Positions 2,963 to 8,508 of a stretch of DNA of 8,508 nt are shown piece after piece. Location of the stretch: IMG/VR virus record IMGVR_UViG_2541047956_000009. One strand, 5' to 3'. Below the pieces are notes generated by a model. The model saw only the letters and a list, made by a program, of their open reading frames with translations, was not told where the DNA came from and made no database searches. This stretch comes from a virus. Lineage: Duplodnaviria > Heunggongvirae > Uroviricota > Caudoviricetes. Position 1 is the first letter of the stretch; each line of letters begins with the position of its first letter. A program made the translations under genes and the position numbers.

Positions 2963-2972
2963 TGGAGTGGAT

Positions 2973-5330
2973 ATGGCAGCAGTAAAAATCTCAGGTGTGC
3001 TGAAAGATGGTGCGGGAAAACCAATACAGAACTGCACTATTCAACTGAAGGCAAAGCGTAACAGCACCACGGTACTGGTGAACACGGTGGCTTCTGAAAA
3101 TCCGGATGAAGCCGGACGTTACAGCATGGATGTTGAGTATGGCCAGTACAGCGTCACCCTGCTGGTTGAAGGTTTTCCGCCTTCACATGCCGGGACCATT
3201 ACCGTCTATGAAGGCTCCAGACCAGGTACGCTGAATGATTTTCTCGGTGCCATGACGGAAGAGGATGTCATGCCGGAGGCATTGCGTCGTTTTGAGGAAA
3301 TGGTGGAAGAAGCGGCACGCAACGCTGAAGCCGCCTCTCAGAGCGCAGCGGCGGCAAAGAAATCCGAAACTGCAGCGGCATCATCGAAGAACGCGGCGAA
3401 AACCTCAGAAACGAATGCAGCTAATAGTGCACAGGCGGCAGCGACCTCAAAGACTGCATCGGCAAACTCCGCGACAGCAGCCAAAAAATCAGAAACCAAC
3501 GCGAAAAATAGCGAGACAGCCGCAAAGACGAGCGAAACCAACGCAAAGTCCAGCCAGACGGCAGCGAAAACCAGCGAAACGAATGCCAAAGCCAGTGAAA
3601 CTGCGGCGAAAAATAGCCAGAATGCAGCAGCCGAAAGCGAGAGTGCGGCAGCTGGTTCTGCGACTTCAGCAGCTGGATCAGCAACTGCTGCGGCTAACAG
3701 CCAGAAAGCAGCGAAGACGAGCGAAACTAACGCAAAGTCCAGCCAGACGGCAGCGAAGACCAGCGAAACGAATGCCAAAGCCAGCGAAACTGCGGCGAAA
3801 AGCAGTCAGGATGCAGCAGCCCAAAGCGAGAGTGCCGCAGCTGGTTCTGCAACAGCGGCAGCTAATAGCCAAAAAGCTGCAAAAACCAGTGAAACTAACG
3901 CAAAGACGAGTGAAACAAAAGCAGCAGCTAGCGAGACAGAAGCAACGTCAGCCGCAACAAGAGCAGAGAATGCAGCCCGGATTGCAGAAGATGCCGCTGA
4001 TCCTGCTTCTGTCCCTCCGCTTCCTGATATCTGGCTACCCTTGAATGATTCTCTGGAAGCGATAACAGGGTATGCCCCGGGCTATAAAACAATAACCATC
4101 GGCAGTGATGAAATAACAATGCCTGTTAATGGCATATGCCAATTTAGCCGGGCTTCATCTGCAACGTATATTGATAAGTCCGGGCATATTACCGTGGCAG
4201 GGAATAACGTTCCTCGTTTTGAAAAATATGGTTTGCTGATAGAGAATCAGCGAACAAACATGTTCGTAAATAGTTTTAATCCTGATGCCTGGAATAAAAG
4301 CGGTGGTATATCTGTAACATCATCAACAGATGAATTTGAGTTTAAATATGGACGTTTCACGGTAGGAAGCGATATAGCAGGAACGACAACAGGGAGAAAT
4401 ATATGCACAGTTGCTGGTAACAAAGGCATAGATGTGACTGGCGATGATCAGTACAGTAAAGGTCCGTATGTTACCGCGTCGTTCAGGGTAAGAAGTGATC
4501 TCAATGTTCGCGCACGTATCCGTTTTGAACGGTATAACTCGGAAGGATACACCTTCCTTTGCGATGCCTATTTGTCATTACAGACCCATGAACTACAAAT
4601 TACTGGTGGCAATGCCCAGCTATTAACAGCAAACTTTGAAATCGATCCTGGTAGTGGATGGATATACTTTCAGGCAACACTGAAATGTCTGCCAGAATGG
4701 GGAATGGTTGGTACGCAGCTGCAAATTGCAGCCGACAGAGCTGTGGGGTCTTTTGCAACAGGTGACTGGATAGAAGTAACCACCCCGCAATTCGAGTATG
4801 GTGCTTGTGCAACTTCCTTCATCATAACGACAACAGAGCCAGCGACTCGTGCATCAGATTTATGTAAATTTCCGCTGATGAAAAATATGTATACCATGCC
4901 TTTTACGTTCATGGTGGAAGTCCATAAAAACTGGTTTATTTCTCATAATGCTGCACCGCGTGTCATTGATTCAGAAAATCACCAGTCCGGAGGCCCATTT
5001 ATTATGGGGTTTGGTTCTTCTGGAACTATTAGTCAGGACGGTTATTCGTATTGCGATATAGGCGGGGCTAACCGACGTGTATATGAATCATGCGGAGTAA
5101 GGGATCTCGTTATGGGATTCAGGGTTAAGGCTGACGGCATGACATGCTCATTTGCAAATAAGCATATAAGCACTGAAACAAAAACAGTATGGAAATATAT
5201 TCGTGAAGCAGCCGTGATTCGTATCGGGGGGCAAACGACGACAGGATTACGACACCTTAATGGTCATATAAAAAACCTCCGTTTCTGGAACAGAGCATTG
5301 TCAGATACGCAGCTTAAGGAATACGTATAA
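2973..5330 (+). CDS. stf: Side tail fibre protein (Stf-like): lambda-type N-terminus, Ala/Ser/Thr/Lys-rich repeat shaft, divergent C-terminal receptor-binding region
   Basis: N-terminus MAAVKISGVLKDGAGKPIQNCTIQLKAKRNSTTVLVNTVASENPDEAGRYSMDVEYGQYSV... matches the lambda Stf N-terminus as recalled. ATG at 2973 with GGAG 5 nt upstream is the likely start (the ORF track's 2967 is an upstream GTG). A long low-complexity AAKTSETNAK-type repeat region is followed by ~440 aa unlike lambda Stf, ending ...IKNLRFWNRALSDTQLKEYV, a motif I recognise from LamG/concanavalin-A-like lectin domains. Confidence 0.85.
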   Translation: MAAVKISGVLKDGAGKPIQNCTIQLKAKRNSTTVLVNTVASENPDEAGRYSMDVEYGQYSVTLLVEGFPPSHAGTITVYEGSRPGTLNDFLGAMTEEDVMPEALRRFEEMVEEAARNAEAASQSAAAAKKSETAAASSKNAAKTSETNAANSAQAAATSKTASANSATAAKKSETNAKNSETAAKTSETNAKSSQTAAKTSETNAKASETAAKNSQNAAAESESAAAGSATSAAGSATAAANSQKAAKTSETNAKSSQTAAKTSETNAKASETAAKSSQDAAAQSESAAAGSATAAANSQKAAKTSETNAKTSETKAAASETEATSAATRAENAARIAEDAADPASVPPLPDIWLPLNDSLEAITGYAPGYKTITIGSDEITMPVNGICQFSRASSATYIDKSGHITVAGNNVPRFEKYGLLIENQRTNMFVNSFNPDAWNKSGGISVTSSTDEFEFKYGRFTVGSDIAGTTTGRNICTVAGNKGIDVTGDDQYSKGPYVTASFRVRSDLNVRARIRFERYNSEGYTFLCDAYLSLQTHELQITGGNAQLLTANFEIDPGSGWIYFQATLKCLPEWGMVGTQLQIAADRAVGSFATGDWIEVTTPQFEYGACATSFIITTTEPATRASDLCKFPLMKNMYTMPFTFMVEVHKNWFISHNAAPRVIDSENHQSGGPFIMGFGSSGTISQDGYSYCDIGGANRRVYESCGVRDLVMGFRVKADGMTCSFANKHISTETKTVWKYIREAAVIRIGGQTTTGLRHLNGHIKNLRFWNRALSDTQLKEYV
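3525..3885 (+). repeat. Intragenic direct tandem duplication (~189 bp unit, second copy ~21 bp shorter) within stf
   Basis: The sequence from 3525 (aagacgagcgaaaccaacgcaaagtccagccagacggcagcgaaaaccagcgaaacgaatgccaaagccag...) recurs from 3714 (aagacgagcgaaactaacgcaaagtccagccagacggcagcgaagaccagcgaaacgaatgccaaagccag...) with few mismatches. Protein level: KTSETNAKSSQTAAKTSETNAKASETAAK...SESAAAGSAT...AANSQKAA occurs twice. A shorter degenerate SETNAK-type periodicity spans ~3340-3960. Confidence 0.75.
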
Positions 5331-5599: not shown

Positions 5600-5611
5600 T
5601 GGAGTAAGACA

Positions 5612-6652
5612 ATGGTTACAAAAACAGTAATTCCTGATGATATCAAAACGCTAAAATCCGACGTTAGCAAATTAAAAAACGATCAAGGGAGCTACGCAAC
5701 AAAATCATATGTAGACAATAAAACAACATGGAATAGTTATTGCAATGTAATCTATGATCAAAAGACATTGCCGACCACTGGAACTATATTTAGCGGTAAG
5801 ATTCACTTGTCAAATAAGACAGGAGAAACCGAAAACGCTTATAGTGAGATGTACACCAGAAAAAATATTGACGGTACAAAAGATACAATGACAAGGATTG
5901 TCACACACAATGGAACAAAAGGTATCTTTTGGGATTTTAGCGATCTTTACGGCGGAACATTAATTTTTCCAGGCAGTGATGGTTACCTTAAGATGGGGAA
6001 CTGTCTCATGTCGTATGGTGTGCGGGGAAGTAACGCGCTTATTAAGTTTGACTGCACAGACACATTACAAATCAAATATGCTAATCACGGGTCGACCATG
6101 ACACTAAACACGCAAGGTACGGCGTATTCTGGTGTGTCGACGTTATTATGGGGAAATTCCAGTCGTCCAGTTGTTTATGAAATTAGGGATGATGGCGGGC
6201 TTTTTTTGTTTTATGCACAAAGGAACCCAGATAAAACCTATCAGCTTGAGATAAACGGGCCATGCAAGGCAACATCATTCGACCAGGTGTCGGACAGAGA
6301 TCTTAAAGAAAACATTCGGGTTATTGATAATGCCACTGAACGCATCAGATTAATGAATGGGTATACTTACCGTCTCAAGTCTAATGGTATGCCTTATGCT
6401 GGCGTTATTGCGCAAGAGGCACTTAATGCAATCCCTGAATCAGTTGGTAGCACAATAAAGTACAAGAGCGGGGACAATGGGTCTGATGGAGAAGAGGGAG
6501 AAAGATACTATACCGTCGATTACTCAGGCGTAACGGGTTTGCTTGTTCAGGTAGCCAGAGAGTCAGACGACAGAATAACAGCACTGGAAGAAGAAAACGC
6601 AGAATTAAAACAAAGATTATCTGCAATTGAGGCGGCGCTTGCGTCCAAATAA
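5612..6652 (+). CDS. Tail-fibre-like protein with C-terminal intramolecular chaperone (peptidase S74-type) autoproteolytic domain
   Basis: 346-aa ORF, GGAG 7 nt upstream of ATG 5612. C-terminal ~120 aa (...FDQVSDRDLKENIRVIDNATERIRLMNGYTYRLKSNG...AGVIAQEALNAIPESV...DDRITALEEENAELKQRLSAIEAAL) has the S-D-x-x-x-K-E-N-I signature and terminal helical segment typical of self-cleaving chaperone domains of endosialidases and L-shaped tail fibres. The N-terminal ~225 aa is Thr/Gly/Asn/Tyr-rich and of unknown fold. Confidence 0.75.
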   Translation: MVTKTVIPDDIKTLKSDVSKLKNDQGSYATKSYVDNKTTWNSYCNVIYDQKTLPTTGTIFSGKIHLSNKTGETENAYSEMYTRKNIDGTKDTMTRIVTHNGTKGIFWDFSDLYGGTLIFPGSDGYLKMGNCLMSYGVRGSNALIKFDCTDTLQIKYANHGSTMTLNTQGTAYSGVSTLLWGNSSRPVVYEIRDDGGLFLFYAQRNPDKTYQLEINGPCKATSFDQVSDRDLKENIRVIDNATERIRLMNGYTYRLKSNGMPYAGVIAQEALNAIPESVGSTIKYKSGDNGSDGEEGERYYTVDYSGVTGLLVQVARESDDRITALEEENAELKQRLSAIEAALASK

Positions 6653-6658
6653 TATTAA

Positions 6659-6682
6659 GGGGGCCGAGCGCCCCGTTTTATT
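6659..6682 (+). terminator. Possible weak intrinsic terminator after the fibre-like gene
   Basis: Short GC stem GGGGC (6660-6664) / GCCCC (6670-6674) with a 5-nt loop, followed by GTTTTATT. The stem is only 5 bp. Confidence 0.35.
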
Positions 6683-6689
6683 GGGTAGG

Positions 6690-6983
6690 ATGAAAATGGA
6701 TATAACACCTTTCCTTCATGCACTTTGTGCTGTGGCTGCGCAGCTACTGATTGGTCTTTTTACCGGGAACTGGGCTTACGGGGCGATAGCCGGTTGTACA
6801 TTCTTCATTGCGCGGGAACACACCCAGGCAGAATATCGCTGGATTGAAATGTTCGGGCATGGCAAGCGTATGAATATGCCGTGGTGGGGCGGTTTTGATC
6901 CACGTGCATGGGATGTGGCAAGCCTGATGGATTTTGCTGTGCCGGTGGTGGCGTGTCTGCTGATCTGGATGTTGATCCGTTAA
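6690..6983 (+). CDS. Small hydrophobic (membrane) protein, ~97 aa, function unknown
   Basis: The ORF is open from 6627, but a GGGTAGGA purine tract sits just before ATG 6690 and ATG 6696 (MKMDITPF...), so the first 21 codons are probably untranslated. Two clear hydrophobic segments (LHALCAVAAQLLIGLFTGNWAYGAIAGCTFFIA and VASLMDFAVPVVACLLIWMLI). Visibly GC-richer than the genes on either side. Confidence 0.55.
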   Translation: MKMDITPFLHALCAVAAQLLIGLFTGNWAYGAIAGCTFFIAREHTQAEYRWIEMFGHGKRMNMPWWGGFDPRAWDVASLMDFAVPVVACLLIWMLIR

Positions 6984-6999
6984 ATATAAAAAGTAAAAA

Positions 7000-7033
7000 G
7001 CCGCAGTAACTTGTCATGATAGGATACTGCGGC
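7000..7033 (-). terminator. Hairpin terminator, likely ending the DinI-like transcript
   Basis: 9-bp inverted repeat GCCGCAGTA (7000-7008) / TACTGCGGC (7025-7033) with a 16-nt loop. On the - strand the hairpin is followed by a U-rich tract (+ strand 6985-6999 is A-rich). No T-run follows on the + strand, so termination of the + strand membrane gene here would be weak. Confidence 0.45.
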
Positions 7034-7100
7034 TGGCTGGTTAACTTTCGATAGTGCGAGTATTGAATGATTTCCAGCCGTTACCGATTTTACGTGTTAA

Positions 7101-7349
7101 TTAGTGAACAAACCACTCGTCAGCAGACTCCCAGGTATCTTTCAGAGTTTCCTGAACAAAAGTTTTAGCTGAATCTTTATCGGCGGTGCGCGTAACAGAA
7201 AGGCCATCGTTGCTGGTGGCTTTTACGATCACCTCTACATCGTCATAACGTTTACTGATGCGTCGGGTTAATTCTTCCTTTAACGCATCCACAGCACCGG
7301 TTGGCATTTTAGTCATTTTTTCTTTGGCTATGCAGATTTCAATACGCAT
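7101..7349 (-). CDS. DinI-family protein (SOS-inducible modulator of RecA, prophage paralogue)
   Basis: 82-aa product [82 protein letters not shown] aligns along its length with E. coli DinI as recalled (MRIE..IAK...P.GA.DAL..EL.RRI...LSV...KD...QET..WESAD.WFV). GAGGGA Shine-Dalgarno (revcomp of 7355-7360) 5 nt upstream of the ATG. Confidence 0.88.
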
Positions 7350-7362
7350 AAAAGTCCCTCTA

Positions 7363-7414
7363 TACTGTGTTTGTATACAGTGTTATTTTTAACTGTATGG
7401 ATAAACAGTGTCAA
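7363..7414 (-). promoter_or_regulatory. SOS-type promoter of the DinI-like gene: two LexA boxes plus sigma70-like -35/-10
   Basis: Box 1 at 7363-7382 (TACTGTGTTTGTATACAGTG) and box 2 at 7391-7410 (AACTGTATGGATAAACAGTG) both fit CTGT-N8-ACAG exactly. On the - strand a perfect TTGACA (revcomp of 7409-7414) overlaps box 2 and is followed after 17-18 nt by TAAAAAT as a candidate -10, with box 1 over the expected transcription start. Confidence 0.7.
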
Positions 7415-8508
7415 GAGGTCTTATTTCTGCTCTTTTGGAGCTCTTCAAAACGATTATGTAAAGATTTCGGATACAGTTCGGTATATACCTGCCATAGCAC
7501 GTTTAATGAACGATGCCCTGTAACTTGGGCGACTTCCTCAATACTAAAACCAGCCTCAAATAAGCGACTTGCCCCTTCTCTACGCAAATCATGGTATCGC
7601 AGATCTTTAATACCTAATTTGCTTCTTACCCTCTGAAATCCCGCAGTAACAGAAGTGCTGTTATATGGAAAAATGAATTCCGATTTTTGGGGCTGTCGTT
7701 GGACGATATCCCAGGCTTCCCCAAGCAAGGCTACTTTCATGTGGTTGCCTTCCTTTTTGCGTGGATCTTTCCTGTCTCTTACGAGTATAGATTTTTGTTC
7801 CTGGTCGAGATCTTCCCATCGTAACCGGCATACTTCTCCGATTCGCATACAGGACCACACAGAAAATTTGAGGATATCAACGAACGGAATTTTTGAGCAT
7901 TTATGTGTAGATCGTTGTTGAAGACCTTCAATGAGCATGTCCAGTTCATCAGATGCCGGTCTACGATTACGACGGTTTGATTTACCAATCAAACCAAGTT
8001 TAAGTAGATATGGACGAGCACTTTTCGCCGGGTTTGATGTGTAATTAATTCCGTATACAGGTTTGGCCGCATCCAGAACACTGCCAAGATAACTAACATC
8101 GTGGCTGACTGTTGCTGGACCTGCACCAGCGTTGTTTCTTAGCCTACAATGTTCAATTACGTCATTTTCTGTCAGTTCGGATAGTTTGATCGCGGAGATG
8201 TCACTATCCATAAGCAGTTCCAGCACATATCTTTTAGTACGACCTGCTTTACCTCCGGCATTTGGGTCATTTAAATATTTGTGTAGTAAGTCACGGACTG
8301 TAAGTCCGTCAACTGCATTTGATGATGGAATGCCATATAGATCTAATTCCATCACTTTCTGTGTACCCCATGTTTTGGCATGGGCATGTTTAGGGAATGT
8401 TTTGCTTTCCCTGTAAGTGATAACACCTTTTTCTTTGATAATCACATTACAGCGATAGCGTGGTGTGCCATCGGATTTTAGTCGTTTCTCTATGTTATAG
8501 TACGCCAT
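7411..8508 (-). CDS. int: Tyrosine-type site-specific integrase (phage integrase family)
   Basis: 365-aa ORF on the - strand whose ATG is the last three bases of the window (it may extend beyond). C-terminal catalytic region has the conserved layout: R in ...CMRIGEVCRLRWEDL, HxxR in RYHDLRREGASRL, and the probable nucleophilic Tyr in GHRSLNVLWQVYTELY. Arm-binding-like N-terminal region. Confidence 0.9.
   Translation of the reverse strand: MAYYNIEKRLKSDGTPRYRCNVIIKEKGVITYRESKTFPKHAHAKTWGTQKVMELDLYGIPSSNAVDGLTVRDLLHKYLNDPNAGGKAGRTKRYVLELLMDSDISAIKLSELTENDVIEHCRLRNNAGAGPATVSHDVSYLGSVLDAAKPVYGINYTSNPAKSARPYLLKLGLIGKSNRRNRRPASDELDMLIEGLQQRSTHKCSKIPFVDILKFSVWSCMRIGEVCRLRWEDLDQEQKSILVRDRKDPRKKEGNHMKVALLGEAWDIVQRQPQKSEFIFPYNSTSVTAGFQRVRSKLGIKDLRYHDLRREGASRLFEAGFSIEEVAQVTGHRSLNVLWQVYTELYPKSLHNRFEELQKSRNKTS

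Follow-up and report, generated by a model that had tools for sequence, protein, structure and literature searches.

A dinI-family cassette with two predicted LexA operators and a conserved two-hairpin 3′ untranslated region at the right end of a dusA-integrated prophage

Introduction

A small gene of the DinI family, whose members modulate RecA filaments, lies directly behind the integrase gene int in the tailed-phage (Caudoviricetes) DNA of IMG/VR record IMGVR_UViG_2541047956_000009, an 8508-bp stretch that we analyzed as a whole and refer to as the window, and two palindromes of the LexA-box type precede the gene. The locus raises the question whether a temperate phage has wired a RecA-directed protein to the SOS response of its host, and, if so, whether this wiring belongs to the gene itself or to its place behind int. 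Taking the evidence together, we consider it highly probable that the locus is a self-contained moron under SOS control, located at the right end of a lambdoid prophage whose integration site is dusA, and that it is composed of a sigma-70 promoter, a gene for an 82-aa DinI-family protein, a structured 3′ untranslated region (3′UTR) and a terminator. The regulatory interpretation, in which LexA would bind the promoter and DNA damage would induce it, is well supported by comparison with related loci. In this respect the finding mostly confirms textbook SOS logic, by which temperate phages wire accessory genes to LexA; the 3′UTR element, previously undescribed, is the one less ordinary part of the cassette and the only one where further study might be rewarding.

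Results

Read along the minus strand, the promoter and the gene are made up of the following parts.

7409..7414, minus strand: –35 hexamer TTGACA, from a promoter scan; also the upstream edge of the mobile cassette described below.
7391..7410, minus strand: LexA box 1, CACTGTTTATCCATACAGTT, an exact CTGT-N8-ACAG scoring 21.7 bits.
7385..7390, minus strand: predicted –10 element AAAAAT, between the two boxes, from the promoter scan.
7363..7382, minus strand: LexA box 2, CACTGTATACAAACACAGTA, an exact CTGT-N8-ACAG scoring 20.7 bits.
7356..7360, minus strand: ribosome-binding site GAGGG, 6 nt before the ATG, read from the sequence.
7101..7349, minus strand: dinI-family gene, 82 aa, predicted RecA filament binder (Pfam, PHROG, structure match and fold).

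The window contains two matches to the motif CTGT-N8-ACAG and no more, at 7365-7380 and 7393-7408; the chance expectation is 0.10 per window, and two matches were reached in only 1 of 200 shuffled sequences. The separation of 8 bp first given for the pair holds for the full 20-mer boxes (7363-7382 and 7391-7410), the 16-mer cores being 12 bp apart and the centres 28 bp. Downstream of the –35 the minus strand reads CTGTTTATCCATACAG (7408..7393), TTAAAAATAACA, CTGTATACAAACACAG (7380..7365), TATA, GAGGG and the ATG at 7349. The promoter scan describes this segment as TTGACA-18-AAAAAT, with 10 of 12 consensus matches. Box 1, described initially as lying over the –35, has its first two bases (CA) in common with TTGACA but otherwise abuts the hexamer and fills the spacer between –35 and –10 instead, while box 2 does span the predicted transcription start, near 7378, and ends 13 nt from the ATG. 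Both boxes are therefore placed, as far as the predicted promoter can be trusted, where bound LexA would block RNA polymerase, and the sequence supports this arrangement.

Scoring of both sites with a LexA position weight matrix, which had been proposed as a check, ranked them as the two best sites in the window. The matrix was built from 26 E. coli SOS boxes, of which 11 were verified in K-12 DNA (umuDC, three of recN, uvrB, dinI, recA, sulA, uvrA/ssb and two of lexA) and 15 are further known SOS boxes; all 11 boxes that fell within the K-12 regions compared were present there exactly. The known boxes, scored by leave-one-out, range from 5.2 to 26.3 bits on the full matrix that gave the values listed above, and a matrix of the 11 verified boxes alone scores the two sites at 20.8 and 20.3 bits. 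Both are comparable in score to the recA, sulA and dinI boxes, their heterology-index-like values are 4.2-6.9, and the maxima of shuffled windows reach 13.9-16.3 bits. The third-best site, at 5610-5629 on the minus strand (TACTGTTTTTGTAACCATTG), lacks one CAG and with 13.8-15.4 bits lies within the level of the shuffles; we note that this weak LexA-like site overlaps the start codon of a tail-fibre open reading frame (ORF), 5612-6652.

Might the palindromes nevertheless be accidents, or operators of some other regulator such as a phage repressor? We consider this extremely improbable: apart from their rarity by chance and their scores, which equal those of bona fide LexA boxes, they are retained among relatives to a degree that we regard as the strongest sequence-based evidence for function. 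Two sets of relatives were compared. In the viral set, 80 contigs encoding a nearly identical protein carry 22 distinct upstream sequences, and the cores of both boxes are conserved across all 22. In the cellular set, 80 loci from GTDB with one genome per species, relatives at least 56% identical in protein mostly have two boxes and come from Escherichia, Shigella, Pantoea, Trabulsiella, Mixta and Erwinia; between these genera the boxes differ in sequence but keep their positions, at 39-42 and 13-15 nt from the ATG. When all loci are pooled and a site is counted from 12.5 bits upward, 42 of the 43 distinct upstream regions of the 82-aa clade contain two sites, at 39-42 and 12-15 nt from the ATG, with a centre-to-centre spacing of 24-29 bp, mostly 28. 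The CTG and CAG triplets are unvarying in 51 aligned cassettes. TTGACACTGT, in which the –35 is fused to box 1, is retained in relatives of several genera, and the A/T-rich –10 keeps its place between the boxes, AAAAAT aligning with TAAAAT, TAAATA and TATATT of relatives. The locus thus displays what is expected of a LexA-regulon member, namely palindromes with CTG and CAG intact, operators over the (predicted) promoter core and start, and conservation of the sites in orthologues.

The two-box design is not general in the family. Among the GTDB loci scanned, a single box is usual in the more distant DinI-family genes, both of the chromosomal type and of other clades, and it lies most often 15-23 nt from the ATG. 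The two-box design does recur in a second prophage clade, which we call MsgA-like (MFVELVYDKR..., 79-80 aa; Pfam DinI at 5e-21) and whose proteins are only 31% identical to the 82-aa protein: 13 of its 15 distinct upstream regions have two boxes, and over both prophage clades the spacing is 22-29 bp. The conservation of the second box and the two-box design of the MsgA-like clade are new details. Among SOS genes of the host, lexA and recN likewise carry at least two LexA boxes per promoter (verified in K-12 DNA), spaced 21-22 bp as opposed to the 28 bp here, and the promoters of colicin genes also contain more than one LexA box.

The assignment of the gene product to the DinI family, made at first from the letters alone, held in proper searches. 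Pfam DinI (PF06183) matches residues 16-80 of the 82-aa ORF over profile positions 1-63 of 63 (E=1.1e-19, 70.9 bits, cut-off 24.2), PHROG 189, ‘RecA filament binding protein DinI’, aligns over profile positions 71-149 of 151 (E=5.7e-31), and the match to the solved E. coli DinI (1GHH/7YWA) is full-length (E=3.7e-13). The AlphaFold model, with a predicted local distance difference test (pLDDT) score of 75, consists of strand, helix, helix, strand, strand and a long C-terminal helix; searched with Foldseek, it finds 7YWA_A at a template-modelling (TM) score of 0.75-0.79 and 1GHH at TM 0.76, the next hit having an E-value four orders of magnitude weaker. By profile and by model, the protein is a DinI-family member. 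In the cryo-electron microscopy structure, DinI contacts RecA through a pocket for RecA F203 formed by L13, L21, W71, W77 and F78 and through an acidic patch of E24, E69 and D76 (PMC9926225). By alignment, these residues map to M15, L23, W73, W79, F80, E26, D71 and E78 of the 82-aa protein, five identical and three conservative, and by this analogy the protein would bind RecA. The chromosomal E. coli dinI (b1061) encodes the same fold and RecA-contact residues at 49% identity. Like the gene in the window it is small and LexA-controlled and follows directly on an unrelated gene (pyrC, 73 bp away); it differs in having one box (ACCTGTATAAATAACCAGTA, 19 nt from the ATG) and no two-hairpin 3′UTR element. 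Its induction by azidothymidine (AZT) is 49-fold (PMC11228462).

We now turn to the place of the gene behind int.

7411..8508, minus strand: int, tyrosine integrase of 365 aa (ORF list; Pfam Phage_integrase, E=7.5e-21; PHROG integrase families).

Just as first noticed, int and the dinI promoter overlap: the hexamer TTGACA (7414..7409) includes TGA, the stop codon of int (7413..7411). No terminator separates int from dinI. One could therefore suppose that dinI is expressed mainly by read-through from int, the LexA sites acting as a roadblock or being incidental. The description of the promoter as embedded in the 3′ end of int, true of this phage, does not carry over to others, however, and it is these other contexts that make the read-through account unlikely. 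Homology to other phages stops exactly at the –35 on one side and just past the terminator on the other. In the Stx1 prophage VT1-Sakai the cassette sits ~160 bp inside attL, in phage cdtI it is divergent from int and convergent with cdtCBA, and other copies have an insertion sequence (IS), IS1, upstream or lie beside IS elements; the same –35, boxes and –10 are present in these places with no int upstream, and conservation of the promoter elements and of both boxes extends across genera. Since the homology breaks at the –35 in other contexts, we take the position after int to be incidental. Having its own (predicted) promoter and terminator and occurring in varied genomic contexts, the unit from –35 to terminator is, judged from sequence, a moron that is also found away from int. 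Among 5426 complete E. coli genomes, 1548 (~29%) have a copy that spans at least 80% of the cassette, and when partial matches are counted, most of them the fossil upstream of ykgJ considered below, there are up to 9 places per E. coli genome. We also observed mosaic cassettes, in the viral contigs L179 and L211: in some copies this promoter and the N-terminal half of the gene are joined to a different C-terminal half and 3′ flank, and others combine a VT1-Sakai-type promoter with this C-terminal half and 3′UTR. Such swapped halves show that recombination takes place inside the 249-bp gene.

As to its present setting, the window represents the right end of a prophage that has dusA as its integration site. 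The identical sequence in E. coli AR_0085 runs from tail fibre genes through dinI and int, both encoded on the other strand, to dusA; in lysogens int occupies the prophage end, divergent from the host dusA at a distance of ~88 bp (L377:4962-7185). From this terminal position and divergent orientation we deduce a dusA-targeting integrase with attP upstream of int, an arrangement unlike that of lambda. The identical sequence is also found in phages PhiR47_1, PhiR40_1 and PhiR55_1. Phage mEp460, a close relative that encodes an S24-type cleavable repressor, matches at 98% identity, and a promoter is already marked at this place in the mEp460 record.

The closest described counterpart is H0001 (DinI-like) of VT1-Sakai/Sp15 (AP000400), whose protein is 95% identical and whose cassette has the same parts, –35 TTGACA, distal box, –10, proximal box, gene and 3′UTR element. 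Among the features recorded in AP000400 are ‘putative promoter of H0001 and H0002’ and, for the proximal box only, ‘LexA protein, putative SOS box’; the distal box falls inside the annotated promoter. The VT1-Sakai variant differs in its weaker boxes, 15.8 and 17.8 bits (scored from the identical promoter in L096), and in its location near attL followed by a YkgJ-like gene, as opposed to after int. In Salmonella Gifsy-1, -2 and -3, a LexA box beside a dinI homologue is needed for damage induction, and DinI accumulates after mitomycin C (Lemire et al., 2011; PMC3121763). All three Gifsy dinI genes respond to nalidixic acid, with 4.6- to 23-fold induction, and each has a single box located 19 nt from the ATG (PMC8072944). 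In view of the SOS-box annotation in AP000400 and the LexA control of the Gifsy genes, this type of cassette and the SOS box of this gene are already known, and the conserved second box is a detail added to them.

The Gifsy precedent suggests another role for the locus, that of an induction switch in which a LexA-controlled antirepressor is co-transcribed with, or fused to, a DinI domain: Gifsy dinI heads an operon with an antirepressor and irsA, and Tum of phage 186 is an antirepressor fused to a DinI-like half (PMC3121763). The alignment of our protein to the later part of the PHROG 189 profile would fit the existence of longer, fused relatives. The anatomy of the locus, however, makes such a switch very unlikely, and we rejected a downstream antirepressor of the Gifsy type, so that this explanation is largely refuted. 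The ORF has 82 aa and a DinI domain only, as against ~146 aa for a fusion of the Tum type; the gene is monocistronic, a terminator hairpin following 67 nt after its stop with no credible same-strand ORF downstream, the lone candidate beginning in the terminator loop and running antisense to the PHROG 1443 gene on the other strand. Gifsy-2 DinI belongs to a different clade, with 42.5% identity to the 82-aa protein, and an S24-type cleavable repressor such as that of mEp460 needs no antirepressor.

Downstream of the stop codon, the transcript is predicted to fold as follows.

7091..6990, minus strand: two-hairpin 3′UTR element (fold and covariation); also at L375:3750-3850, L083:2461-2563 and L376:3259-3359.
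7035..7079, minus strand: hairpin 1, with arms GGCTGG (7079..7074) and CCAGCC (7040..7035) and a 33-nt loop (7073..7041) (fold).
6995..7033, minus strand: hairpin 2, the intrinsic terminator here, with arms GCCGCAGTA (7033..7025) and TACTGCGGC (7008..7000) followed by TTTTT (6999..6995) (fold).

Hairpin 2 combines a 9-bp G+C-rich stem with a 16-nt loop and forms the downstream edge of the cassette, flanking sequence diverging just past it in other contexts; it escaped an automatic terminator scan, the probable reason being a loop longer than 8 nt. In most relatives it has the conserved loop TTCTTGCATACGA, often without a U-tract. The loop of hairpin 1 contains an invariant 21-mer, CATTCAATACTCGCACTATCG (7069..7049), found exactly in at least 120 viral contigs, and the region of this motif is 90-94% identical where the nucleotide identity of the coding sequence is 70-75%. 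Covariation was assessed in 37 diverse copies against 500 shuffles and slid-register controls. In the predicted register, 92.5% of cells are paired, compared with 18-60% in the slid registers; compensatory changes occur in 9 of 13 pairs (4 of 6 in the stem of hairpin 1 and 5 of 7 in the outer stem of hairpin 2), and 38 double-change cells were observed vs 12.4 in shuffles, none of the 500 shuffles reaching the observed values. More G-U pairs than A-C mismatches were counted, a bias that points to folding of the dinI strand.

The element follows genes of both the DinI-like and the MsgA-like clades. Its remaining contexts are mostly apparently truncated or IS-disrupted cassettes. A covariance model detects it behind the E. 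coli, Shigella, Pantoea and cdtI cassettes and also in K-12, where no gene accompanies it: 130 bases comprising the last 58 nt of the gene and the 3′UTR match, at ~86%, an unannotated site between ykgJ and ecpE (NC_000913.3, ~304.2-304.5 kb; L083:2501-2630) that is present in K-12 and in almost every E. coli genome. Here the UTR part is nearly identical and the coding part has decayed. As the VT1-Sakai dinI is followed by a YkgJ-like gene, we interpret the K-12 site as a fossil prophage end, and ykgJ itself may, on this sequence evidence, be prophage-derived. The 130-bp match was also considered as an attachment (att) site and rejected, the window sequence being contiguous in lysogens and the prophage integrated at dusA.

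These observations bring up the explanation that the payload of the cassette is partly RNA, the two hairpins being either a processed regulatory RNA or an element acting in cis on stability or processing, with the DinI protein only part of the function. We take this seriously without favoring it. It would account for a 21-mer and a first stem more conserved than the coding sequence, for covariation in both stems, for an element common to two DinI-family clades whose proteins are so dissimilar, and for its persistence in the gene-less fossil of K-12 and most E. coli; a precedent exists in DinR, a small RNA (sRNA) processed from the 3′UTR of Klebsiella dinI (PMC10907235). The likeness to DinR lies in a LexA-controlled dinI transcript with a conserved structured RNA at its 3′ end, and the difference in that the element of the window has neither homology to DinR, by sequence or by model, nor pairing with ftsZ. 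The covariance model gives no match behind the chromosomal dinI of K-12 or of Klebsiella, and its silence behind the latter means that the element is not DinR. Duplex prediction between the 3′UTR and the start regions of ftsZ, lexA, recA, sulA, umuD, recN, ssb, uvrB and dinI gave nothing significant (best uvrB, z=-1.57; ftsZ, z=-0.05). Many copies of hairpin 2, furthermore, lack a U-tract, and the conservation could partly reflect recombination between prophages.

A search of Rfam with the locus and its relatives found no family for the 3′UTR element. The sole signal was between the reverse strand of hairpin 2 and the 3′ terminator of CssrB (Shigella sRNA B), at 22 bits where the gathering score is 76 (L083:2435-2503, plus; L375:3818-3888, minus), which suggests that in Shigella hairpin 2 works in both directions and is shared with a convergent sRNA as its terminator. 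The 21-mer is absent from the searchable literature, and literature searches for published SOS-box lists and for dinI in Hfq data of enterohaemorrhagic E. coli (EHEC) gave nothing usable. Two phage sRNAs were rejected as identities of the element: HnrS lies in late genes and is nearly restricted to EHEC and enteropathogenic E. coli (EPEC), and svsR lies within cI. A 33-codon plus-strand ORF antisense to the 3′UTR was dropped, only 14 codons remaining in the K-12 fossil by manual reading of the alignment. RefSeq (PGAP) has a plus-strand pseudogene fragment, named ‘capsid protein’ or ‘nucleocapsid protein’, at ~7024-7104 (L377:4575-4655), exactly over the element, and this call looks like a misannotation propagated by the conservation of the element.

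Discussion

Let us assume that the promoter works as its sequence suggests. In the undamaged lysogen, LexA dimers on both operators, one in the spacer abutting the –35 and the other at the start site, would keep the promoter shut. Upon DNA damage, RecA would become active, LexA would cleave itself and both operators would clear, probably only at a deeper depletion of LexA than single-box genes require, as two good sites have to be vacated; the dinI mRNA would then be made. By analogy with the tandem-operator SOS genes, two good operators suggest low basal expression and a late onset, and the recurrence of the two-operator design in two prophage DinI clades predicts a tighter or later induction of prophage copies. 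The 82-aa protein, if it follows its homologue, would dock in the groove of the RecA filament like the host DinI, using the hydrophobic pocket for RecA F203 and the acidic patch. It would thereby add to the pool of filament-stabilizing DinI and compete with UmuD and, at high dose, with LexA and CI-type repressors.

The groove of the RecA filament also binds UmuD, LexA and lambda CI (PMC9926225). Together with the S24-type repressor of mEp460, this shared groove makes an effect on UmuD processing or on repressor cleavage plausible, and a role in tuning RecA-dependent repressor cleavage or mutagenesis, as the original prediction proposed, is a plausible conjecture by analogy. Given complete copies in ~29% of complete E. 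coli genomes and matching pieces in up to nine places per genome, the total dosage of DinI in the SOS response, and hence UmuD processing, mutagenesis and repressor cleavage, may vary from strain to strain.

Several points weigh against the reading of the locus as an SOS-regulated DinI moron. Non-polar removal of the dinI homologues from Gifsy phages left induction without significant change (PMC3121763), so that the only experimental precedent for the physiological role is a negative one. Taken as a whole, the original prediction is partly supported. In the searchable literature we found no paper on the regulation or function, binding or expression of the E. coli clade. Read-through from int could also express dinI. 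Of the 26 matrix sites, 11 were verified in K-12 DNA, although these alone score the two boxes about equally well. The –10, AAAAAT, has a weak first position, and the start site is a predicted one only.

The most specific form of the RNA explanation is that the segment 7091..6990 is an undescribed SOS-induced regulatory RNA of the DinI-like and MsgA-like cassettes of Enterobacteriaceae, released or acting in cis upon LexA cleavage, with the loop CAUUCAAUACUCGCACUAUCG as its seed or protein-binding site. We propose this only tentatively and regard it as rather doubtful. If it were true, the cassette would be a dual protein-plus-RNA SOS effector and the fossil upstream of ykgJ a retained piece of it. 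More broadly, the element may be a regulatory RNA, a stability element or a linker maintained by recombination, and in the search for new SOS-linked RNAs carried by phages it is a concrete candidate.

Additional observations

On the other side of the cassette, a conserved phage ORF on the plus strand (6627-6983, with a RefSeq start at 6696) belongs to PHROG 1443 (E=8.6e-58), a family that assigns no function. It converges on dinI and ends 12 bp short of the T-tract of hairpin 2, and given this proximity the terminator may serve both genes. The window itself ends exactly at the start codon of int. Further upstream on the map, the side tail fibre gene (2967-5330) contains a long region of Ala/Ser/Thr/Lys-rich repeats at ~3300-4050 (KTSETNAK, SAAAGSATAAANSQKAAKTSETNA...), which is crossed by a 259-aa ORF in another frame and by several antisense ORFs, probably artefacts of the repeats.

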